Source: Bacteroidales bacterium
Lineage (GTDB): Bacteria; Bacteroidota; Bacteroidia; Bacteroidales; P3
Assembly (NCBI GenBank): GCA_024400665.1
Contig: JAKSML010000004.1
Coordinates: forward strand, 9,151-73,150
Length of the DNA stretch: 64,000 nucleotides
Direction: 5' to 3'
In this document: piece by piece, positions 26,969-37,601 of the stretch
Position numbering within the stretch: position 1 is the first letter of the stretch
Layout: every line of letters begins with the position of its first letter
Program-made: the position numbers and the translations under genes
The notes under the pieces: generated by a model
Databases searched by the model: none
Seen by the model: only the letters and a program-made list of their open reading frames with translations
Told to the model about the DNA's origin: nothing

Positions 26969-27795
26969 TAAAAAAACAGCTCTTTTATCAGCGCGCGGTT
27001 GTGGAGGACGGCATTGAAGAGGCCTTCGATATTCACCTGGCTCTCGCGGCCGTCGCGGTTGACGCAGACGTTCATATAGCCGCCGGGGAGCTGCTCGGTG
27101 TAGAGGGCCTCGGGGTCGGCTGCGGAGTCGTAGTTGAAAGAGAGCTTGCTGGTGATGGCCTCGATGCTGGCGTTGAGCATCACATCGTCGTGGTTAAGGA
27201 TGATGATAGGGTCGATGAGGTTCTCGACGTCCTTGACCTGATGGGTGGAGATGATGATGGTGGTGCCCTCCTGCATACGTTTAGAGAGGAGAGTGCGAAA
27301 GTCCGACTTGGAGGGGATGTCGAGGCCGTTAGTCGGCTCGTCGAGAAGCACATAGTCCGTGCCGAGGGAGAGTGCGCAGGCGATGAGCGACTTCTTCTGC
27401 TGGCCGTAGCTCATCTCCTTGAACTTGCGCTCAGGATCCACCTCCATCTCCTGCATGAGGTGCAGGAAAGTGCCGTAGGCATACTTGGGATAGAACGGCG
27501 CCAGCTCCTTAATATAGCTCGTGGGAGTCACGTTGTCGGGCAGCGTGACGGCATCGGGCAGGAAGACAAGATTCTGCAAAAATTGCGGCAGGCGGTCGAA
27601 GCTTGCCATGCCATCCACCATGCAGAAGCCCGCCTGAGGCCGCTGGAGGCCGCTGATAATCTTCAAGAGCGTCGTCTTGCCCACCCCGTTCTCGCCAAGG
27701 AGGCCGTAGATGTTGCCCGGCTCAAAAGTGAGACTGATGTTGTGGAAAACGGGCGTTTTCTTGTAGCTGAAATCCAAATTTCTAATTTCTATCAT
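26968..27795 (-). CDS. ABC transporter ATP-binding protein
   Basis: Start set at MIEIRNLDFSY. Walker A is GLLGENGVGKTTLL, the signature is MSYGQQKK, and Walker B is YVLLDEPTNGLD. Confidence 0.9.
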   Translation of the reverse strand: MIEIRNLDFSYKKTPVFHNISLTFEPGNIYGLLGENGVGKTTLLKIISGLQRPQAGFCMVDGMASFDRLPQFLQNLVFLPDAVTLPDNVTPTSYIKELAPFYPKYAYGTFLHLMQEMEVDPERKFKEMSYGQQKKSLIACALSLGTDYVLLDEPTNGLDIPSKSDFRTLLSKRMQEGTTIIISTHQVKDVENLIDPIIILNHDDVMLNASIEAITSKLSFNYDSAADPEALYTEQLPGGYMNVCVNRDGRESQVNIEGLFNAVLHNRALIKELFF

Positions 27796-27888
27796 AAGTC
27801 TGTGTGTTATATTGTTTGCGTTTAATCTATTATTTCTCTGTTCGTTATCTGTATTATTGTTTATGTGTATTAGATTACTAACACACTG

Positions 27889-27896
27889 CAAATGTA
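27889..27896 (-). promoter_or_regulatory. -7 promoter box TACATTTG (minus strand) for the ABC/GntR operon
   Basis: Plus strand reads caaatgta, 94 nt upstream of the ATG at 27795. Confidence 0.4.
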
Positions 27897-28111
27897 ATAC
27901 TTTTTTTTGACATGGCAAATTTTTTTTCGCACTTCGGCAAAATTTAACATTTCGCACCTCGAAAATCCGCCTCGGAAAACAACAAGTAAAAAATTATCAG
28001 AAAATATTTCACAAATTTATACAATAATATAGAGCAAATGTCGTTTATAGGATTTATATAGCGTGATTTCGCTATTGAAATAATGAATATAAAAAAATAA
28101 CAATACACATT

Positions 28112-28996
28112 ATGGCAGAAAAATCTTTCGGCAACAGCTACGACCACAACGCCACCCGCCGCTTCTTCGGCAAATGGTGGAAACTGCTCCTCTGGGTATT
28201 CATCCTCGCCTTGATAGGCTCCGTGGTGGTATCGCTCTGCATCACCAAACGGTATAAATCCACAGCCATCCTATTCCCCACCAACTCCAACCGCCTCAGC
28301 AAGGCCATCATGGACTACCACTACAGTCTCGACTTCATGGACTACGGCATCGAGCGCGACTGCGAGTACTGCATCCAGATCCTCCTCTCCGAATCCATGG
28401 AACGCGATGTCTGCAAACGCTTCAACCTCATGGAGCACTACGGCATCAGCCCCGACGACCCCATCAAGATGTTCAAGCTGCATGAGCAGTACCGCGGCAA
28501 CGTGAACGTGAAGCGCACCGAATACCTCGGCGTCGAAGTCTCCGTGCTCGACGTCGATCCGCAGTGGGCTGCCGACATGGCCAACTTCATCGCCGCCAAC
28601 TACGACTCCGTGTGCCACCGCATACACCATGCCCGCGCCTGCAACGCCGCCGACATCATGCAGGGCGTGTGCGACAGCCTCGGCCTCGAAATACAGCTCC
28701 TCCAGGACAGCCTCAAGCGCAACCCCCAGTACACCCTCGGTCTCACTCAGCTCATCAACGAGAAATGCCATGAGCTCGCCGACCTCGAAACCCGCGCCGC
28801 TCAGACCAAGGTGGATATGAACGAGAGCGTGAGCTATAAGTTCCTCCTCGACGAGGCCGTGGCATCCGACAAGAAAGCCTATCCCAAGCGCGCCGTCATC
28901 GTGGCTCTCGGCACCCTCGGTGCCGTCGTGATGTGCATCCTCATCCTGCTGCTCCTCGACTACGCCAAGAAGGAAGAAGAACTTGTAGAAGCGTAG
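28112..28996 (+). CDS. Wzz/chain-length-determinant-like bitopic membrane protein
   Basis: 294-aa ORF with an N-terminal TM (LLLWVFILALIGSVVVSLCI), a coiled periplasmic region and a C-terminal TM (VIVALGTLGAVVMCILILLLL). It sits next to an O-antigen-ligase-like gene. Confidence 0.5.
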   Translation: MAEKSFGNSYDHNATRRFFGKWWKLLLWVFILALIGSVVVSLCITKRYKSTAILFPTNSNRLSKAIMDYHYSLDFMDYGIERDCEYCIQILLSESMERDVCKRFNLMEHYGISPDDPIKMFKLHEQYRGNVNVKRTEYLGVEVSVLDVDPQWAADMANFIAANYDSVCHRIHHARACNAADIMQGVCDSLGLEIQLLQDSLKRNPQYTLGLTQLINEKCHELADLETRAAQTKVDMNESVSYKFLLDEAVASDKKAYPKRAVIVALGTLGAVVMCILILLLLDYAKKEEELVEA

Positions 28997-29020
28997 CCCC
29001 TCCCCTATTATACCTTATAT

Positions 29021-30535
29021 ATGTCGTTCCCGAACTGGCTTAAGAAGAACAAGGCTGCCGTCATCGCCATCGCGCTGACGCTCTGCTTTGCCGTGGCCAA
29101 TTCCATCCTCCTCCTCAAGGACTTCTACTACCTCTCCCTCCTGCCCCTCGCCGGGCTGGTGCTGCTGCTCTTCATCACCAAGTTCGAGACAGGACTCCTC
29201 TGCATGGCGCTCCTCACCCCCTTTGCCATCGACATGGCCCTCTTCCCCAAGATGGAACTCTCCATGCCCGTAGAGCCGATGATGATACTCTTCACGCTGA
29301 TGTTCTTCTTCCGCGTGCTCGCCAGCCGCAGCTACGACCTACGCCTCTTGCGCCATCCCGTGAGCATAGCCCTCCTCGCCTCGCTGGCATGGATGCTCAT
29401 CACCTCCTGCACCTCGTCGATACCCCTCGTGTCGTTCAAATACCTCCTCGCCCGCCTCTGGTTCGTGGTGCCCTTCTTCTTCGCCGCCGCGCAAATCTTC
29501 CGCGACAAGAGCCGCATACGCCAGTTCTTCTGGTGCTACGCCATCGGCCTCATCGCAGTCGTGGCCATCGCCACCGCCAAGACCGTGGGCAACTTCAGCG
29601 ACCTCCAGACCCTCCACCGCGTCATGAAGCCCTTCTACAACGACCACACAGCCTACGGCTGCGTCATCGCCCTCTTCCTCCCCGCGGGCTTCTACTTCAT
29701 CTTCAGCCGCAACAGCAAAGGTTGGGCACGACTCTTCTTCCTCGCCATCTTCGCGCTCCTCGTGGTGGGACTCTTCTTCTCCTACTGCCGCGCGGCATGG
29801 CTCAGCGTGCTCGGCGCCATAGGCGTCTATGTACTCATACGCATGGGCATGAAGGTCAAATGGATGGCGCTGTTCTTCGCCCTCGGCGTAGGACTATTCT
29901 TCACCTACCAGAGCGACGTGATCTACAAGCTCGGCAAGAACCATCAGGACTCCTCCTACGACCTCCAAGGCCAGATCAAGTCCATCTCCAACATCTCCAC
30001 CGACGCCAGCAACCTCGAACGCCTCAACCGCTGGGCCTCGGCCTTCCGCATGTGGAAAGAAGACCCCATCCTCGGCTGCGGCCCCGGCACCTACCAGTTC
30101 CTCTACGCCAGCTACCAGCGCTCCTACCAGCTCTCCACCATCAGCACCAACGCTGGCAACCTCGGCAACGCCCACAGCGAATATATAGGCCCGATGACCG
30201 AGCAGGGCGTGCCAGGCGTGGCCCTCGTCATCTGTGTTTTCATGACCACCTTCGCCACAGGCGTGCGCGTCTATCGCACCGCCAAGGACAAGGTCACAGC
30301 CAACATGGCCCTCGCCTTCACCCTCAGCCTTCTCACCTATTATATCCACGGCTTCTTTAACAACTTCCTCGACACCGACAAGCTCTCAGTGCCCTTCTGG
30401 GCCTTCACCGCCATCATCGTCGCCCTCGACGTATATAGCGAGAAGCGCAGCCCAGAAGAGCCTGAGCCTCATGGGGAAGCACCTCGGCCGACCTCTTCCG
30501 CAGAGGACGCAAGCAAGCAAGCAAGCATCAAATAA
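29021..30535 (+). CDS. O-antigen ligase/polymerase family (Wzy_C-like) membrane protein
   Basis: 504-aa ORF with more than 10 TM helices. It has a large loop with the typical block NLERLNRW..A..M....P..G.G.G and AHSEY. Confidence 0.7.
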   Translation: MSFPNWLKKNKAAVIAIALTLCFAVANSILLLKDFYYLSLLPLAGLVLLLFITKFETGLLCMALLTPFAIDMALFPKMELSMPVEPMMILFTLMFFFRVLASRSYDLRLLRHPVSIALLASLAWMLITSCTSSIPLVSFKYLLARLWFVVPFFFAAAQIFRDKSRIRQFFWCYAIGLIAVVAIATAKTVGNFSDLQTLHRVMKPFYNDHTAYGCVIALFLPAGFYFIFSRNSKGWARLFFLAIFALLVVGLFFSYCRAAWLSVLGAIGVYVLIRMGMKVKWMALFFALGVGLFFTYQSDVIYKLGKNHQDSSYDLQGQIKSISNISTDASNLERLNRWASAFRMWKEDPILGCGPGTYQFLYASYQRSYQLSTISTNAGNLGNAHSEYIGPMTEQGVPGVALVICVFMTTFATGVRVYRTAKDKVTANMALAFTLSLLTYYIHGFFNNFLDTDKLSVPFWAFTAIIVALDVYSEKRSPEEPEPHGEAPRPTSSAEDASKQASIK

Positions 30536-30542
30536 CCGCAGC

Positions 30543-31121
30543 ATGAACATAAAACGCAACCTCATAATTGCCAGCATCCTGTGCCTCTTCGGCCTCACCG
30601 CAGCCGCACAGAGCCACGACTCCGTGCTCATCCCCACCCTTCAGCAGGCCATCGACAGCATCCAGGCCGAGCCCGACAGCGCCGACCTCCTCATCGACGA
30701 GGCCCGCAAGCACCTCGGCGCCCCCTATCACTACGGCGGCAAAGGACCCCGCAGCTTCGACTGCGCCGGCTTCGCACGCTACTGCTACCTCAAGATGTTC
30801 GGCATCACCCTGCCCCCAAGCAGCGGCGCACAGTATAACGTAGGCCACCGCATCAAGAAACGCACAGAGCTGCAGCGCGGCGACCTCGTCTTCTTCCAAG
30901 GCCGCTCCGGCCACGGCGGTGTTGGCCACACCGGCATCGTTACCGAGGTCGATACCAATACGGGCGTCTTCCGCTTCATCCATGCCGCCACCTCCACAGG
31001 CGTCATCCATTCCTACTCCACCGAGGCCTACTACTCCCGCCGCTACATCGGCGCCACACGCATCCTCGGCGACCGCCGCAAGCCCGAAGCCCCCCTCCCT
31101 TCTCGCAGCAAGAAACGCTGA
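30543..31121 (+). CDS. NlpC/P60 (C40) family peptidoglycan peptidase
   Basis: Start set at MNIKRNLIIASILCLFGLTAAAQ (signal peptide). The catalytic Cys block is FDCAGFARYCY and the His block is GHTGIVT. Confidence 0.85.
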   Translation: MNIKRNLIIASILCLFGLTAAAQSHDSVLIPTLQQAIDSIQAEPDSADLLIDEARKHLGAPYHYGGKGPRSFDCAGFARYCYLKMFGITLPPSSGAQYNVGHRIKKRTELQRGDLVFFQGRSGHGGVGHTGIVTEVDTNTGVFRFIHAATSTGVIHSYSTEAYYSRRYIGATRILGDRRKPEAPLPSRSKKR

Positions 31122-31167
31122 CCCTCCCTTCCCTCCTACCCGCACAATAGGGTTTCAATCCTGCCTC

Positions 31168-31268
31168 ACCCTTGACTTATCCTTGCCTCACCCTTGACTT
31201 ATCCTTGACTTACCCTTGACTTAGCCTTGACTCACCCTTGACTTATCCTTGACTCACTTTTGACTCGC
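31168..31268. repeat. Tandem array, 9 x 11-bp unit (yccttgactya)
   Basis: Read directly: cccttgactta tccttgcctca cccttgactta tccttgactta cccttgactta gccttgactca cccttgactta tccttgactca cttttgactcg. Confidence 0.85.
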
Positions 31269-31433
31269 TCGTTAGAGAGGAGTGATAAGGAATGGTCTTG
31301 CGGTGGTGGGGCTTTGGGGGAGTATCTTTTTTTATGATTATCCGCAATTGCTGCTAACAAATGGGGTCTTTGAGGTGCGCACGGGAGATGGCGGATTTTT
31401 AACATTTGGAGTTAGAAATAAATTTTTTTTCAG

Positions 31434-31490
31434 TCCTTACTTTGACCTTACTTTGACCTTACTTTGACCTTACTTTGACCTTACTTTCTC
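31434..31490. repeat. Tandem array, 5 x 11-bp unit (ccttactttga)
   Basis: Read directly: ccttactttga x4 followed by ccttactttct. Confidence 0.85.
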
Positions 31491-31650
31491 CCTAAGCAGT
31501 ATATGTTAAATAATGCTTTGATAGGGAGGTTTTTTTTTACATTCCGGCTGTTTTCTCTTTATCTTTTTTAAGAAATTCACACCTCTTTTTCAGCACTTGT
31601 TGCATTTGTTACTTGAACTTAAGCTCGACTTATCTCCTTTTCAGGAATGT

Positions 31651-31676
31651 AAAAAAAAGCCCCTCGCAAGAGGAGC
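31651..31676 (-). terminator. Rho-independent terminator downstream of the 61-aa ORF
   Basis: The minus strand reads gctcctc-ttgc-gaggggc followed by T8. Confidence 0.65.
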
Positions 31677-31761
31677 CTTTCTTTGTCGATTACATTTTTA
31701 AAGACGGAAAAATTAAATAGGGAGACATAATAATGCCTCCCTAAAATGGAAAATCTGCAAT

Positions 31762-31947
31762 TTATCCCCTATTCTTAGCCTCTTCCGTTGCAATTTTGAA
31801 TGCTTCATTTTTCTCGTAAACACTATCATTACGATAGGTAGCTGTGCCCACATAAGTACGATCGTTTTCATCCTTAGCAGTTACGATTACTTCTGTATAT
31901 GAACCATTATCTACTTCATGGATTTCAGTTATTGTTCTGTCTGACAT
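31762..31947 (-). CDS. Small hypothetical protein (61 aa) in an AT-rich islet
   Basis: An ATG is preceded by GGGGGGAATTAAT (SD-like G-run). It is followed by a hairpin (tagggag..ctcccta) and a terminator. The composition is acidic/polar and not low-complexity. No family was recognised. Confidence 0.4.
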   Translation of the reverse strand: MSDRTITEIHEVDNGSYTEVIVTAKDENDRTYVGTATYRNDSVYEKNEAFKIATEEAKNRG

Positions 31948-32078
31948 ATTAATTCCCCCCTGTTATACACCATCGGGGCCGTCGGCTTTGATTGATATAT
32001 TAAATTGTGTTGTTGTGCCAACTGATTTGGGAGTGAGGCGCACATAAAAAAGCGTGGCACATTTCTTCGCTTTCATTA

Positions 32079-32203
32079 GACATCTAACGGTCTTCCACAA
32101 CCTAATCATCCTAACTACAACGAGTAAAGTCCACGCCTTACGGCGGGAGCTCCGTTGCTTTACTCAAGGATGATTGAATTTAATGTGGAAGTTTTCAGAT
32201 GTC
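32079..32203 (-). ncRNA. Candidate structured RNA / long imperfect hairpin (5 nested helices, GNRA apex on minus strand)
   Basis: The nested pairings are gacatct/agatgtc, cttccaca/tgtggaag, atcatcct/aggatgat, gagtaaag/ctttactc and cgcc/ggcg. The apical loop reads GUAA on the minus strand. It lies ~130 nt upstream of, and on the same strand as, the 61-aa ORF. Confidence 0.3.
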
Positions 32204-32335
32204 CTTTGTCAAGCTACTTTGCTTTTCCTATATGTCTTACAATGTGCGTGTCAATTATATGCTATGCTTCATTGGCAGATTTGTTGGTGAATACTTTGTT
32301 TGTTCTCTGTTTTCGGACGGTTTGTCCTATTTTTT

Positions 32336-32415
32336 AATTGAGAATTGAGAATTGAGAATTGAGAATTTGGGCGGGGACCGGCGTTTGTATTGTCAATTCA
32401 CTATTCACTATTCAC
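32336..32415. repeat. REP-like intergenic module (aattgag x4 - tgggcggggaccggcg - gtcaattcactattcactattcac)
   Basis: Read directly. The arms are the reverse complement of those at 26866-26968. The core resembles those at 35950-35975 and 15384-15402. Confidence 0.75.
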
Positions 32416-32421
32416 AGGTTC

Positions 32422-34296
32422 TTATTTCTTCTTGCCGAGGCCGAGGCTGGGGAGTTCTACGCCACGGAAGGCGGAGAGGATGCCGCTGGGGGCGGGAGCC
32501 TCTTTGCCGTAGATTTCGGCGATGAGGGGTTTGTATTTCTCCATGAGCACGTTGCGCTTAATCTTGAGCGTGGGCGAGAGGAGTCCGTTAGCGGAGGTCC
32601 ATTCGTCGGCGACGAGGCGGAAGCTCTTGATCTGCTCGTGGGCGGCAAAGGAGGGGTTGATTTGGTCGATGACCTTCTTGAACTTTTCGCGGGTCTCGGG
32701 GAGGTTGAGGAGCTGCTGGTTGTCGCGGTAGTGGAGGTGGTATTTGAGTGCCCAGTAGTGGAGGGTGTTGAAGTTGGGGGAGATGATGACGGCGGCGCTC
32801 TTCTCGTTCTCGCCCACGACCATGGCTTGCTCGATGTATTCGGATTCGCGGAGCTTGTTTTCGAGGAGCTGGGGGGCGATGTACTTGCCGGCGGAGAGTT
32901 TGAAGATGTCCTTCTTGCGGTCGGTGATGCGGAGGTAGTGGGTGCCGGTGATGGTGGTGTCGAACTGGCCTACGTCGCCAGTGTGGAACCAGCCGTCTTG
33001 GTCGATGACCTGCGCGGTGGTCTCGGGGTCTTTGTAGTAGCCGAGCATGACGTGGGGGCCGCGGGTGAGGATTTCACCATCGTCGGCGAACTTGACTTCT
33101 ACGCCGCTGAGGACGGGACCGACGGTGCCGATCTTGACGGCGTTGTGGACGGGGTCGTTGACGGCGATGACGGGGGAGGTCTCGGAGAGTCCGTAGCCTT
33201 CGTAGATGTTGATGCCGGCGGCGGCGAAGGTGCGTATCATGCGGGGCTGTATGGAGGAGGAGCCTGTGATGACGATGAGACGGTTGCCGCCGAAGCGCTC
33301 GCGCCAGTGGCGATAGACCATGCGGTCGAAGAAGAGCTGGGAGAGCTGGTAGCCGAGGGAGACTTTCTTAATGAGGGTGTAGTCGTAGCGGGCGCCGTGC
33401 TTGAAGGCGCGGGTGTATATCTTCTTCTTGAGGCCTGTGAAGTCTTTGCCTGCGGCATAGAGTTTGTCGTAGAACATCTCCAGCACGCGGGGGACGGCGC
33501 AGAAGCCGTTGGCGTGGATCTCGGCGAGGTTCTGCTGGATGGTGCCCATGCTCTCGGCATAGTAGATGCTGACGCCTTTGAACTGGAAGTGGTAGTTCAT
33601 GCTGCGCTCGTACATGTGGTTGAGCGGCAGGAAGCTGAGGACGCGGCAGGTGCTGTCCATGGGGTTGACGCGGGCGTGGGCGAGGAAGTTGGAGCAGAGG
33701 TTGCGATGGGAGAGCATGACGCCTTTGGGCTGGCCTGTGGTGCCGGAGGTGTAGATTAGGGTGCACCAGTCTTCGGGCTTGATGGTGGCCTTGAGCTGCT
33801 CGACGATGGGCTCGTTCTTCTCACGGGAAGCGATGCCGGCCTTGAGGATTTCGAGCATACGGTGTTCGCCCTCAATCTGGGTGAGGGTGTAGATGGTGGG
33901 GGCATCTTCGCCCAGGCGTTCGAGGGCTGGGCGGATGCGGCGCAGGAGGATGTTGCTGCTGACGAAGAGGCAGGCGGCCTCGCTGTGGCGGAGGATGTGC
34001 TCGTAGTTATCGACGCTCAGCGTGGGATAGATGGGCACATGGATGATGCCGGTGAGGGCGAGGGCCATGTCGATGAAGTTCCACTCGGGGCAGTTGGTGG
34101 ACATGGTGATGACCTTGTCGCCGGGCTTGAGCCCTATTTCGAGGAGGCCGTAGGCCAGATAATGCGAATATTTATAATAGTCGCGGGTGCTATATTTTGT
34201 CCATTCACCTTTCTCTTTGCAGGCCAAGATATCCTCTTTGTCGGGATAATTGGTCGTGAGATGGTCTAACAGGTCAAAAGTTCGTGTTATTTCCAT
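32422..34296 (-). CDS. Long-chain fatty acid--CoA ligase (AMP-binding enzyme)
   Basis: Start set at MEITRTFDLLDH. The AMP-binding motif is LIYTSGTTGQPKGV, with later blocks GYGLSETSP and TGDVG. The upstream 83 codons of the ORF cross the promoter region. Confidence 0.9.
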   Translation of the reverse strand: MEITRTFDLLDHLTTNYPDKEDILACKEKGEWTKYSTRDYYKYSHYLAYGLLEIGLKPGDKVITMSTNCPEWNFIDMALALTGIIHVPIYPTLSVDNYEHILRHSEAACLFVSSNILLRRIRPALERLGEDAPTIYTLTQIEGEHRMLEILKAGIASREKNEPIVEQLKATIKPEDWCTLIYTSGTTGQPKGVMLSHRNLCSNFLAHARVNPMDSTCRVLSFLPLNHMYERSMNYHFQFKGVSIYYAESMGTIQQNLAEIHANGFCAVPRVLEMFYDKLYAAGKDFTGLKKKIYTRAFKHGARYDYTLIKKVSLGYQLSQLFFDRMVYRHWRERFGGNRLIVITGSSSIQPRMIRTFAAAGINIYEGYGLSETSPVIAVNDPVHNAVKIGTVGPVLSGVEVKFADDGEILTRGPHVMLGYYKDPETTAQVIDQDGWFHTGDVGQFDTTITGTHYLRITDRKKDIFKLSAGKYIAPQLLENKLRESEYIEQAMVVGENEKSAAVIISPNFNTLHYWALKYHLHYRDNQQLLNLPETREKFKKVIDQINPSFAAHEQIKSFRLVADEWTSANGLLSPTLKIKRNVLMEKYKPLIAEIYGKEAPAPSGILSAFRGVELPSLGLGKKK

Positions 34297-34402
34297 TATT
34301 CTAATGCTAATATTTAACCGATTGAAATCAAACACAATGGCACACAAGCTCCAACAGTCTGCGGCATCATGCCCGAAGTTCCAATCTTCGAAAAACGAAA
34401 TG

Positions 34403-34410
34403 CAAAAATA
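34403..34410 (-). promoter_or_regulatory. -7 promoter box TATTTTTG (minus strand) for the acyl-CoA ligase gene
   Basis: Plus strand reads caaaaata, 107 nt upstream of the ATG at 34296. Confidence 0.45.
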
Positions 34411-34463
34411 CACATTTTTTTTCAATAATGAAGATTTTATTGCACTATGTCTGATTTTTTTTG

Positions 34464-34471
34464 TATTTTTG
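34464..34471 (+). promoter_or_regulatory. -7 promoter box TATTTTTG for trkA
   Basis: TAnnTTTG motif 117 nt upstream of the trkA ATG. The REP-like palindrome 34489-34564 lies in the predicted leader. Confidence 0.45.
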
Positions 34472-34488
34472 CAGCCGCGAAAATCATT

Positions 34489-34564
34489 GATAATTGAAAA
34501 TTGAAAATTGAAAATTAGGGCGGTAGCCGTCGTTTTAATTATCAATTTTCAATTATCAAGTATC
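34489..34564. repeat. REP-like intergenic module (gataattgaaaattgaaaatt - agggcggtagccgtcg - aattatcaattttcaattatc)
   Basis: The arms are 20/21 inverted complements. Confidence 0.75.
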
Positions 34565-34587
34565 AGTATAATTATCATCAAAGACCC

Positions 34588-35928
34588 ATGAATATAATCA
34601 TAGCAGGTGATGGAGAGGTGGGCTTTTACCTCGCCAAATCGTTATCGGAACTGAACCACAATATCACGGTGGTGGATCCTAACTCGGAGCTTCTGAAGCG
34701 CCTGGAGAAGGAGACGGACCTATTGACGATAGCGGGGTCCTCGACCTCGCCGCAGGTGCTGGCGGAGGCCAACGTGGCAGGCTGCGACCTGTTTCTGGCC
34801 GTGCTGCACGACGAGAGCATCAACCTGATGAGCTGCGTGCTGGCCAAGAAACTCAAAGCCACGAGGACGGTGGCACGCATCTCGAACGCCGAGCTGCTCC
34901 AGCCCAAGCACCGCGACATGTTTCGCGACCTGGGCGTCGATGACCTCGTGTGTCCCGAGCGCATTGCCGCCAAGGAAATCACCAACCTGCTGAATGTCTC
35001 GGTGGCAACGGAGTTCTTCGACTTCTCGGGAGGACTGCTGACGATGTACCTCATACACCTCGACGGCGACTCCCCCGTGGCAGGCTGCAGCGTGAAGGAG
35101 CTGGTGCAGCGGTACAGAAACATCCATGTGAGGATTGTGGCCATTCTGCGCAACGGCGAGACCATCATACCCCACGCCGACAGCGTGCTGACATCCGGCG
35201 ACATGGTCTATCTCATCAGCCGCCCCAACCAGCTCGAAGCCATCAAGGAGGTGTCCGGCAAGCAGGACATCTCGGTGAAGAAGGCGATGATTGTGGGTGC
35301 CGGGCGCATAGGCCGCAATGCCGCCCAGACATTGGAGAAGAAGATGCGCATCACACTGTTCGAGGAGTCGCGCAGCCGCTGCGAAGAGGTGTCGGGGATG
35401 CTCAGCAACACCCTCGTCATCAACGGCGACGCCACCGACATCGAGCTGCTCAAGGAGGAGGGGCTGCAAAGCACCGACGCCTTCATAGCCGTGACAGACT
35501 CGTCGGAGACCAACGTCCTCACCTGCCTCCATGCCAAGAAGCTGGGGGTGCGCCGCACCATAGCGCTGGTGGAGAACACGGGCTTCATCAACCTCTCGCA
35601 GGATATCGGCATCGACACCATCATCAACAAGAAGCTCATCACAGCCAGCTATATCTCCCGCTTCCTCGTCCACGGCGAGGCCGTGCGCAGCAAGTGGCTC
35701 AGCGGCACCAACGCAGAGATCATCGAGTTCAGCGTGGGCAAGTGGGCGCCCGCCACACGCCATCCCATACGCGAGCTGCCCCTGCCGCAAGGCTCCACCA
35801 TCGGCGGCATCATCCGCGGCAACGAGACCATCCTGCCCAAACGCGACACCCAGATCAAGGAGAAGGACCGCGTGGTGGTATTCGCACTGCCCAAAGTGAT
35901 GAACATCGTATCGAAACTGTTTGTGTGA
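34588..35928 (+). CDS. trkA: Trk system potassium uptake protein TrkA (tandem RCK/NAD-binding domains)
   Basis: 446-aa ORF with two Rossmann GxGxxG blocks (IIIAGDGEVGFYLA and MIVGAGRIGRNAA), each followed by an RCK_C-like segment. Confidence 0.9.
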   Translation: MNIIIAGDGEVGFYLAKSLSELNHNITVVDPNSELLKRLEKETDLLTIAGSSTSPQVLAEANVAGCDLFLAVLHDESINLMSCVLAKKLKATRTVARISNAELLQPKHRDMFRDLGVDDLVCPERIAAKEITNLLNVSVATEFFDFSGGLLTMYLIHLDGDSPVAGCSVKELVQRYRNIHVRIVAILRNGETIIPHADSVLTSGDMVYLISRPNQLEAIKEVSGKQDISVKKAMIVGAGRIGRNAAQTLEKKMRITLFEESRSRCEEVSGMLSNTLVINGDATDIELLKEEGLQSTDAFIAVTDSSETNVLTCLHAKKLGVRRTIALVENTGFINLSQDIGIDTIINKKLITASYISRFLVHGEAVRSKWLSGTNAEIIEFSVGKWAPATRHPIRELPLPQGSTIGGIIRGNETILPKRDTQIKEKDRVVVFALPKVMNIVSKLFV

Positions 35929-36011
35929 ATTGTGATCTGTGAACTGACAATACAAGCCGATGGTTCCGCCCTCACTTTTTATTTCTTAATTCTTCATTCA
36001 TCAATTAAAAA

Positions 36012-36080
36012 AACGGCTCCCGCCCTGAAGAAAGTCCAGTGGACTTTCGATAGCGTAGCGGAGAACAAACATTCTCAATT
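36012..36080 (+). repeat. 69-bp element, copy 1 (identical to 37600-37668)
   Basis: aacggctcccgccctgaagaaagtccagtggactttcgatagcgtagcggagaacaaacattctcaatt. It contains the palindrome gaaagtcca-g-tggactttc. Confidence 0.9.
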
Positions 36081-36101
36081 TTCAATTCTCAATTAAAAAA
36101 G

Positions 36102-37601
36102 ATGTCTGCTTTTAGGCCGCACATAGAACGCATAGGGGTACGCAAGTTCAACCTCAAGCTGATCTTCAGGCTCATGGGGGTGCTGCTCATGTACCATGCC
36201 CTCGGCATGGCCCTGCCCTTTGCCATCTCTATCTACTGCCACGACGGGGCACAGTTTGCCCTCGGCATGGCGGCCGTGGGCATCCTCATCCCCGGACTCT
36301 TCTTCCGCAACATCCTCGGCAAGAACCCCACCTACGACATCGCCGAGAACGAGAGCTACTGGGTCACGACCATCACCTGGCTCACCATCCCGCTGAGCGG
36401 CACCCTGCCCTACATCCTCACAGGTGCCACAGGCAGCTTTGCCGACGCCCTCTTCGAATCCTTCAGCGGCTTCACCACCACAGGCTCGTCGGTGATGGCG
36501 CATCCCGAAGAGCTGCCGCAGGGGCTGCTGGTCTATCGCGCCTTCACCCAATGGGTCGGAGGCCTCGGGCTGATGCTCTTCGTGGTGGCTATACTGCGCA
36601 GGCTCACCCTCGGCGCGGAACAGATATACGAAGCCGAGTTCAGCGGCACCCAGCAGCGCAAGCTCCACCCCCGGCTGGCCAAGAGCGTCACCCGTCTGTG
36701 GGTCATCTACAGCGTGCTCACCCTCATGCTCTTCCTCCTGCTGCTCATCCAAGGCACCCCGCTGGTCGATGCGATATGCCTTGCCTTCAGCACAGTCTCC
36801 ACAGGCGGCTTCGTCACCCACAGCAGCGGTCTCTCCATCCTCAGCGACGGATGCCTCTGCACCATCACCCTCTTCATGCTCCTCAGCGGCATCAACGTGG
36901 CGCAGCTCTACCGCATCTTCACCCTCAAGCTCCGCCACTGGGGACGCGACGAGGAGACCCGCGCCTACCTTCTCCTGACGCTGTGCTCGATAAGTCTCTG
37001 CGTCATCGGCTTCGTCGCTGCGGGGCAGGATGTCGGCACATCGCTGCGCTACAGCGTCTTCCATATAGCCTCGACGGTCTCCACCTGCGGCTACTACCTG
37101 CCACGCCCGCAGCACTGGTCGTTTGTCGTCAGCGTCCTCACCTTCCTGCTCATCGTCGTGGGCGCCTCGGCAGGCTCTACGGGCGGCGGCCTCAAGCTGC
37201 GCCGCATCATCATCTTGTCAAAATACATCGGCAACTACTTCACCCGCATGATGCACCCCAACGCCGTCTTCCGTGTCAAGGTCAACGGCGAGGTGGTGCA
37301 GCACGACTATATCACCAAGGTCTTTGCCTACTTCTTCCTCTACATCGCCTTCATCGTGGCGGGAGCCTTCGTGCTGACGCTCTGCCGCTGCTCCATACCC
37401 GACGCCATCTGCATGGCCGCCGCCAACATCAGCAACCTCGGCCCCTCGCCACTCATCAACAACCTCGGCGGCAGCCTCGACTACGCCATGCTCCCCACCA
37501 TCGGCAAGCTGACCCTCACAACCCTCATGCTCGCCGGACGCCTCGAACTCTTTGCCCTCATAGCCGTCTTCTCCCCAGCCTACTGGCGCCGCGGCACCTA
37601 A
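36102..37601 (+). CDS. trkH: TrkH-family potassium transporter subunit
   Basis: 499-aa polytopic ORF. TrkH-type selectivity-loop blocks are present (SGFTTTGSS, STVSTGGF, STVSTCGY, GSTGGGLK). Confidence 0.85.
   Translation: MSAFRPHIERIGVRKFNLKLIFRLMGVLLMYHALGMALPFAISIYCHDGAQFALGMAAVGILIPGLFFRNILGKNPTYDIAENESYWVTTITWLTIPLSGTLPYILTGATGSFADALFESFSGFTTTGSSVMAHPEELPQGLLVYRAFTQWVGGLGLMLFVVAILRRLTLGAEQIYEAEFSGTQQRKLHPRLAKSVTRLWVIYSVLTLMLFLLLLIQGTPLVDAICLAFSTVSTGGFVTHSSGLSILSDGCLCTITLFMLLSGINVAQLYRIFTLKLRHWGRDEETRAYLLLTLCSISLCVIGFVAAGQDVGTSLRYSVFHIASTVSTCGYYLPRPQHWSFVVSVLTFLLIVVGASAGSTGGGLKLRRIIILSKYIGNYFTRMMHPNAVFRVKVNGEVVQHDYITKVFAYFFLYIAFIVAGAFVLTLCRCSIPDAICMAAANISNLGPSPLINNLGGSLDYAMLPTIGKLTLTTLMLAGRLELFALIAVFSPAYWRRGT

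Follow-up and report, generated by a model that had tools for sequence, protein, structure and literature searches.

A hairpin in a Bacteroidales contig forms the centre of a probable 5'-leader RNA from a large, uncatalogued family

Introduction

The window (the whole stretch of 64,000 nt that was analysed) contains a hairpin of about 125 nt in non-coding DNA. Is this structure an RNA, from which strand is it made, and what does it do for the genes beside it? The original prediction preferred a minus-strand leader or cis-regulatory RNA and named an independent small RNA and a DNA-level element as other options.

Here, we report that this hairpin is the central part of a structured minus-strand RNA in leader position, which recurs in many copies across Bacteroidales and belongs to no catalogued family. 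Two properties had been missed: the hairpin is multicopy, and it has an alternative fold of terminator shape.

Results

The hairpin is the inner part of a longer rod

All five complementary segment pairs of the original prediction were located at 32079–32203. As minus-strand RNA, this segment folds with -51.7 kcal/mol (z -7.33), and none of 200 dinucleotide shuffles was as good; the plus strand reaches -44.8 kcal/mol (z -5.83; both RNAfold). The hairpin is real, but its extent was underestimated: it is the inner part, from P3 through the apex, of a rod of ~215 nt (Table 1).

The comparative fold added two helices outside of the predicted hairpin. RNAalifold placed 61 pairs in the rod of 15 genus copies, 25 of them with both sides changed, and found the outer helices P2 (AAAAGC:GCUUUU) and P1 (AYGCACAU:AUGUGCRU). 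The resulting duplex is near-continuous, imperfect and ~45 bp long. The fourth predicted helix, GAGUAAAG:CUUUACUC, does occur in the window, but it is only 76% paired family-wide. The pairing GCAACG:CGUUGU, which excludes it, is better supported (87% paired).

In the window copy, AUGUGC is present twice (32038–32066, minus strand): in the 3' bubble and after the U-run. Hence, the 5' strand of P1 is able to pair with either. In the minimum-free-energy fold of a truncated window transcript, it takes the AUGUGC of the bubble.

Table 1. Positions of the features of the window copy and its surroundings
Feature	Position	Strand	Remark
Hairpin of the original prediction	32079..32203	minus	P3 through apex of the rod
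Rod RNA	32036..32251	minus	match of covariance model R1, 197.5 bits
Rod P1	32249-32243/32044-32038	minus	ACGCACAU:AUGUGCGC-type pairing
Rod P2	32227-32220/32054-32047	minus	AAAAGC:GCUUUU
Rod P3	32204-32194/32088-32078	minus	
Rod P4	32191-32185/32098-32092	minus	
Rod P5	32173-32165/32114-32106	minus	
Rod P6	32158-32153/32122-32117	minus	
Rod apex helix	32148-32142/32137-32130	minus	
3'-half self-fold, candidate terminator arm	32046..32138	minus	base helix 32137-32126/32066-32051, then U-run 32051-32046
Weak local hairpin AAGC-N6-GCUU	32211..32224	minus	uses the 5' strand of P2; 89% paired in 99 copies
Pentamer GUGCC in the 3' bubble	32056..32060	minus	pairs in the terminator arm or with downstream GGCAC
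GGCAC, partner of the pentamer	32015..32019	minus	
Portable leader module, 373 nt	31959..32331	minus	ends ~10 nt before the start of the 61-aa ORF
Conserved 5' motif UGCCAAUGAAGCAUAGCAUAUAA	32255..32277	minus	upstream of the rod; contains CCRAUGAA, which recurs in the 3' bubble
Start-proximal hairpin GGCCCC-GAUGGUGUAUAACA-GGGGGG	31955..31980	minus	stem CCCC:GGGG in the window
61-aa ORF	31762..31947	minus	downstream of the leader; orphan without Pfam family
Two terminator-like hairpins with U-runs	31743-31718 and 31673-31660 (31660..31743)	minus	after the 61-aa ORF

Covariation and base pairing identify a minus-strand RNA

Pairs were counted in the 99-copy model alignment (A6). As this alignment was fitted to the rod model, the rod pairing is inflated in the following figures: 92.5% of the rod cells were in standard pairs, compared with 70.6% after shuffling and ~40% when the partners were slid by 1–3 columns. 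P2 (AAAAGCG:CGCUUUU) and the alternative fold described below lie outside the model and are unaffected; P2 was 90% paired although absent from the model. Covariation at homologous loci, proposed as a check in the original prediction, was found in the same alignment at 48 of 55 pairs, with 1015 cells changed on both sides.

The rod contained 466 G-U or U-G pairs and 106 A-C or C-A mismatches (4.4-fold). This excess marks the rod as an RNA of the minus strand of the window rather than a DNA cruciform or a plus-strand RNA. The predicted strand was right: it is borne out by the G-U excess together with promoter boxes and downstream ORFs on the same strand. The reason given for it, a GNRA apical loop on the minus strand, is invalid since the loop is not conserved: GUAA, GCAA, UUUU, AAAA, AUUU, AAUA and others were found across copies.

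The compensatory changes are also visible within the genome itself. Another copy (G000:C3) is 77% identical with a 166-nt query and 81% with a longer one. The flanks of the two copies are identical over tens of bases, and the outer stems differ by compensatory changes: GACAUCU/AGAUGUC in the window against GUCAUUCUG/CAGAAUGAC, CUUCCAC/GUGGAAG against CUUGGAC/GUCCAAG, and AUCAUCC/GGAUGAU against AUCCCCC/GGGGGAU.

Copies are numerous within Bacteroidales

The Rfam/Infernal scan suggested in the original prediction returned nothing at gathering thresholds over the whole window (Rfam 15), and a permissive scan of 31400–32900 gave only chance-level matches over the rod (E above 8). A full-text literature search found no paper describing this leader family.

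BLAST homologues were present in 12 of 24 congeneric genomes. A covariance model (R1) built from genus copies found seven good copies in the own genome, which is 65% complete. Among the other genomes of the taxonomic family, 78 of 120 had matches, covering 16 of 18 genera, and some of these genomes carried at least 19 copies. When each genome was taken from a different Bacteroidales family, 38 of 150 had matches. In a phylum-wide draw of 150 other genomes, there were only eight, all with weaker scores: two from the same order, five from elsewhere in the class and one from another class. An exact-pattern scan of contigs gave many chance matches in GC-rich genomes and served only to name Bacteroidales carriers; among the matches listed, these were, by their MAG labels, Alistipes, Rikenellaceae, Tidjanibacter, Paludibacteraceae, Prevotellaceae, Bacteroidaceae and Porphyromonadaceae.

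Copies within a genome are ~70–80% identical (77–81% for the two best copies of the own genome). At some loci (L022, L078 and L008), tandem copies lie ~1 kb apart.

A large share of the copies start 100–500 nt from a contig end (e.g. G134:C57:195-392, G119:C39:117-320 and G152:C6:119-319). The DNA just upstream of the module may therefore often be hard to assemble or contain a longer or more identical repeat. Two divergent copies of the own genome, L053 (G000:C10) and L054 (G000:C44), have direct repeats of AGACAGATAACACATTARAT upstream of the rod, and each is then followed by a nearly identical ORF of 63–65 aa.

The rod is part of a portable module in front of unrelated genes

When window positions 27000–37000 were compared by blastn with two other loci (L207 and L208, copies in G090 and G001), only 31959–32331 aligned, with 77% identity. 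In an alignment of four copies, the similarity stops ~10 nt before the start codons of unrelated ORFs. As the shared unit is confined to the module and the flanks are unrelated, the element is a portable leader module.

In 46 of 48 copies, the 3' end of the rod is followed within 140 nt, mostly at 30–90 nt, by the start of a co-oriented ATG ORF of at least 45 aa. In 23 of 49 copies, the rod is preceded by a TAnnTTTG promoter box (Bacteroidetes -7) that ends 58–73 nt upstream of it. The leader or cis-regulatory RNA that the original prediction had put first is thus favoured by covariation, G-U asymmetry and fixed orientation, and backed by the short distance to the start codon and by the promoter box in about half of the copies.

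Many of the downstream ORFs have N-termini resembling those of lipoproteins or signal peptides. Most had no family in Pfam; the matches obtained were PKD lipoproteins, a BspA-type LRR protein with a T9SS sorting domain, a radical SAM/SPASM enzyme, a CsgG-like protein, and HNH and HTH proteins.

Two further elements of the module are conserved. In the 5' motif, the ATGAA columns are invariant and GCC is nearly invariant (15 genus copies). In the window, this motif can be read as a mini-ORF (AUG AAG CAU AGC AUA UAA, 32255–32272, minus strand). In other copies, the mini-ORF has two to six codons and always stops shortly upstream of P1. As it shrinks to two or three codons in some copies and is absent from the wider family, the idea of a leader peptide is doubtful and was set aside. 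The start-proximal hairpin has a conserved loop, GAUGGUAUAUAAC, and a stem of 3–5 bp, and stands before many unrelated start codons. By eye, its stem covaries (UGCC/GGCA, GUCG/CGAC, GAC/GUC and CCCC/GGGG). The Shine-Dalgarno-like G-run in front of the 61-aa ORF is thus the 3' strand of this hairpin.

Two other readings of short motifs were dismissed. A sigma-54 -24/-12 element was considered for TGGCAC downstream of the rod, but the GC that should stand at a set distance is missing, and the pentamer covaries with the 3' bubble instead. For CCRAUGA as a kink-turn, the GA on the opposite strand is missing (by eye).

The window copy sits in a variable islet

The window copy is solitary and lies between an AMP-binding enzyme gene and an NlpC/P60 gene. 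The 61-aa ORF behind it is of doubtful reality; a query with this ORF found no homologues in the 120 other genomes of the taxonomic family.

No TAnnTTTG box was found on the same strand within 2 kb upstream of this copy. The nearest one upstream is at 34403–34410, before the AMP-binding enzyme gene. As there is no minus-strand terminator-like site between this gene and the leader, co-transcription is possible, and polymerases that run on from the AMP-binding enzyme gene may supply the transcript of the window copy.

In the closest relative (G001), the AMP-binding orthologue is 97% identical as a protein, and positions 31555–32401 are replaced by ~160 unrelated bases. The exchanged AT-rich islet, compared with positions 570–733 of L211 (G001:C62), spans ~31546–32405 and holds the leader, the 61-aa ORF and the terminators. 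No direct repeats were seen at the indel boundaries against G001. The module was absent beside the AMP-binding orthologue in 13 of 13 congeneric loci, with no filled orthologous site.

Just after the stop codon of the AMP-binding gene (32336–32420), heptamer microrepeats (GAGAATT four times, ATTCACT three times) surround a GC-rich core, GGGCGGGGACCGGCG; similar pieces occur at 36071–36100 and several times in G001. Positions 31332–31554 hold a CCTTACTTTGA array with an 11-bp period, which is 82% identical to G001 with a different number of units. As it is conserved in G001, the array belongs to the conserved flank and not to the variable islet.

The 3' half has a second conserved fold that ends at the U-run

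The 3' half of the rod also folds on its own (fold B; the rod is fold A). Taken alone, the 3' half of the window copy reaches -28.5 kcal/mol (z -3.84, with none of 200 shuffles as good), and its base helix abuts the U-run. When the 5' half of the window copy was folded in the same way, its structure was no better than chance (z -0.44). The base helix, GCGUGG..CUUU:AAAG..CCACGC, is G+C-rich and is directly followed by 6–8 U. It forms because the invariant CCACGC 5' of the U-run (CCCACG in other sub-groups) complements the 3' strand of the rod apex, GCGUGG (CGUGGG).

In the 99 copies of A6, the base helix was 88% paired. Alignment column 245 covaries with its partner in the rod (205) as well as with its partner in the terminator (353; GC 79, AU 10). 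Divergent copies have changed both strands: CGCGGU/ACCGUG, CUCCACUU/AAGUGGAG, GACCACG/CGUGGUC, GUCCACA/UGUGGAC and UUCACG/CGUGAG. As the 3' strand of the apex is nearly invariant, the covariation of this key helix comes from about a dozen divergent copies. The inner helices of fold B, AUUGG:CCRAU and AGGY:RCCU, were 86% paired, and the column pair 275/321 was GC in 32, UA in 25 and UG in 9 copies. Fold B was predicted in nine of the ten copies analysed, which came from different sub-groups; the tenth (L061) gave no fold, its 3' half not having been extracted.

The apex hairpin and P2 share nucleotides with the terminator base helix, so the two folds are mutually exclusive. The blocks AAUUGGG, CCRAUGAAAGCG and AGGU..ACCU are unpaired in the rod, and their conservation is explained by their pairing in fold B. 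The best structure that contains the terminator helix falls short of the rod by 10–20 kcal/mol (by 2 kcal/mol in one copy); hence, fold B needs a helper. The terminator arm encloses ~50–70 nt, far beyond a textbook terminator loop. A simple local terminator at the U-run, AAAGCG..CGCUUU, was discarded, as it exists only in a sub-group (e.g. the window copy and L023).

Three smaller pairings touch both folds. A small 5' hairpin with a GAAA:UUUC core is 77% paired overall. Going by the fold model, its loop CUUCGAC (5' strand of P4) and the terminator-arm loop GUCGAAG (3' strand of P4) could kiss through P4. The weak local AAGC/GCUU hairpin competes with P2 for the A-run. Finally, in 50 of 97 copies, the pentamer in the 3' bubble has a perfect Watson-Crick, class-specific complement that lies downstream of the rod at a distance of 5–35 nt: GGCAC for GUGCC (19 of 24), GGAAC for GUUCC (7 of 16), GGGAC for GUCCC (8 of 15), and further pairs such as UGUCC with GGACA, AUCCC with GGGAU and AACCC with GGGUU. 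Pentamers of the wrong class match zero to two times (at most 1 of 24 for the GUGCC class). This helix is possible only in read-through transcripts, and its nucleotides are also needed by the terminator arm.

Discussion

A probable transcription-attenuation leader

Our preferred reading, which we hold with moderate confidence, is that the module acts as a transcription-attenuation leader, with the rod as antiterminator and the self-fold of the 3' half as terminator. The elements expected of an attenuator are present: a 5' leader position, a G+C-rich helix with a U-tract, and an alternative fold that shares nucleotides with it. In fold A, the two halves pair with each other through seven helices, and the basal ones (P2 and P1) join the upstream A-run to the U-run and to the CGC that precedes it. 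Fold B pairs the apex 3' strand with the segment directly 5' of the U-run, giving the shape of an intrinsic terminator.

During transcription, the rod would zip up from the apex. As it is also thermodynamically favoured, read-through into the downstream gene is probably the default state. If the 5' half were held by something, or the apex opened, the 3' half would become available for the terminator. From the two folds, we infer that fold B would terminate, that the rod would act as antiterminator and that a factor would switch between them; this effector could be a protein, another RNA or a metabolite.

A more speculative extension, which we consider possible but doubtful, is that the dozens of portable leaders per genome, with their shared CUUCGAC/GUCGAAG and CCRAUGAA, form the regulon of one trans-acting factor. 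Such a factor might be an RNA chaperone-like protein or an RNA, and it would act on transcription elongation to turn on or off a whole set of surface, secreted and defence genes that are exchanged horizontally.

Comparison with known systems

In trp/pyr-type attenuators, T-boxes, ANTAR/RAT systems and riboswitch platforms, mutually exclusive helices compete, one of them abutting a U-tract before an ORF. The rod leader is similar in its mutually exclusive helices, which share nucleotides and one of which lies at a U-tract upstream of an ORF. It differs in having no recognised aptamer or protein-binding repeat and no Rfam match. Moreover, its competing structures are ~100–200 nt each, and it is portable and highly multicopy.

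The rod of 6S RNA is similar in size (~200 nt) and has a large internal bubble between helices; the Bacteroidales rod differs in being multicopy, in its leader position and in its variable stems. It is not a 6S RNA: the Rfam 6S model matches neither the rod nor anything else in five genus genomes. ERIC, Correia and BOX repeats and MITEs share with the rod that they are dispersed, imperfectly palindromic, intergenic and 100–250 bp long, are co-transcribed with their neighbours and fold as RNA hairpins. In contrast to these, the rod is fixed in orientation to the downstream gene, with a promoter in about half of the copies, and is deeply diverged with compensatory changes and a second conserved fold ending at a U-run; no terminal inverted repeat or target duplication was seen for it. 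The possibility raised in the original prediction, a terminal inverted repeat of a MITE or IS, is not supported, given the fixed orientation, the 70–80% identity with compensatory changes and the missing target duplication at the indel boundaries.

Integrons with attC sites and rAID-1-type arrays are co-oriented low-GC cassette arrays downstream of a tyrosine recombinase, in which each cassette is bounded by a repeat. The window copy is solitary, and a few tandem copies exist elsewhere; the rAID-1 motif is given only in a figure (10.1101/471110).

The closest described device is cATTpLS20, a zipper-type transcriptional attenuator of Bacillus conjugative plasmids (Gonzalez-Alvarez et al., Nucleic Acids Res 2026, PMC13401043), and the likeness is one of analogy only, not of membership. 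There, a long stem is extended when the strand of a weak upstream hairpin pairs with the terminator region; the antiterminator forms by default, and the effector is unknown (PMC13401043). The rod leader resembles it in the long 5' leader with a long imperfect stem-loop, and in a weak upstream stem-loop and a downstream U-run segment that are complementary and extend the long stem into an antiterminator. The AAGC/GCUU hairpin (89% paired, with P2 at 90%) would be the analogue of SL-2. A default antiterminator is described for pLS20 and predicted for the Bacteroidales rod.

There are also differences. The two have no sequence relationship and come from different phyla. In the Bacteroidales rod, the 5' strand of the terminator is the 3' strand of the apex, and the whole 3' half folds on itself rather than forming a small local hairpin. 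There are seven to at least 19 copies per genome before unrelated accessory genes, whereas pLS20 has a single one before a conjugation operon. The rod has an extra covarying helix to the pentamer downstream of the U-run. Finally, a local terminator hairpin exists only in a sub-group of the copies, and the downstream genes are not conAn1.

FopS and GibS (Ruttiger et al., Nat Commun 2025, PMC11697453) are multicopy RNAs of Bacteroidales with sigma-ABfr-type promoters and a link to the expression of surface or outer-membrane genes, which likens them to the rod leader. FopS is short, with a single-stranded 5' seed and one terminator hairpin, and acts in trans on susC mRNAs (PMC11697453). The rod, in contrast, has 215 nt and a fixed place before an ORF. 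An identity with FopS or GibS was rejected, as both are in Rfam, the rod has no match and the architecture differs (PMC11697453).

Alternative explanations

The copies could instead be independent small RNA genes with a promoter of their own, ending at the U-run and acting in trans, so that the genes downstream would be incidental. Exposed CUUCGAC/GUCGAAG loops or CCRAUGAA could then base-pair with targets or act as a sponge for an RNA-binding protein (e.g. RbpB). We judge this unlikely, though it accounts for the promoter box in about half of the copies, for a stable structure followed by a U-run and for loop sequences conserved in all copies, and RbpB-bound multicopy sRNAs do exist in Bacteroides (FopS; PMC11697453). 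It fits poorly with the finding that 46 of 48 copies have a co-oriented start codon no more than 140 nt away, with homology between copies that runs past the U-run to ~10 nt before the start codon, and with a covarying helix between the rod bubble and the pentamer beyond the U-run, which is present in read-through transcripts only; nor does the rod match the Rfam models of FopS/GibS or BTnc. As a terminated leader would accumulate as an sRNA, this reading keeps some weight.

Quite improbable, in our estimate, is an element that works as DNA: a MITE-like palindrome or a cassette-exchange site (integron attC-like or rAID-1-like) whose hairpin would form in single-stranded DNA and move or swap the downstream gene. 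Such an element would explain why the 373-nt module stands before unrelated genes with unrelated flanks and why module and ORF are missing beside the AMP-binding orthologue of G001 and beside 12 further congeneric orthologues; copies 100–500 nt from contig ends and tandem copies ~1 kb apart (L022, L078 and L008) would agree with it, and integron-like repetitive intergenic sequences are found in the rAID-1 arrays of Bacteroidales (Ross et al., 10.1101/471110). The 4.4-fold excess of G-U over A-C, however, is expected of an RNA made from one strand and not of DNA hairpins formed on either. Orientation is fixed to promoter and ORF, copies within a genome are merely ~70–80% identical, the indel boundaries have no terminal direct repeat, a BLAST of the module against plasmid and phage collections gave no match, and there is no recombinase gene among the three annotated flanking ORFs. 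A second fold with a U-run also has no obvious role in DNA. Portability and RNA function are compatible and do not exclude each other. We give the least weight to a stability or processing element (an RNase III-type substrate or a 5' stabiliser), which would set the half-life of the transcript or split the leader off and would take no termination decision. The ~45 bp of near-continuous imperfect duplex would suit this role, and a constitutive rod is the thermodynamic expectation; however, it would leave unexplained both the conserved, covarying alternative fold ending at the U-run and the conserved sequence of those rod loops for which this fold alone provides partners. It is very improbable.

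Significance

RNA-based regulation has been charted only poorly in Bacteroidales, which are dominant in the guts of humans and animals. The family is large and order-wide, and it would rank among the most abundant cis-regulatory RNAs of Bacteroidales. As a leader family, it offers a testable handle on the post-initiation control of variable surface and accessory genes, and the module could serve as a portable part for expression control. As the module is linked to swapped cargo genes, it also bears on the joint acquisition of accessory genes and their regulation. The single-factor regulon, if it proved true, would add a new type of global regulon to a dominant order of gut bacteria.
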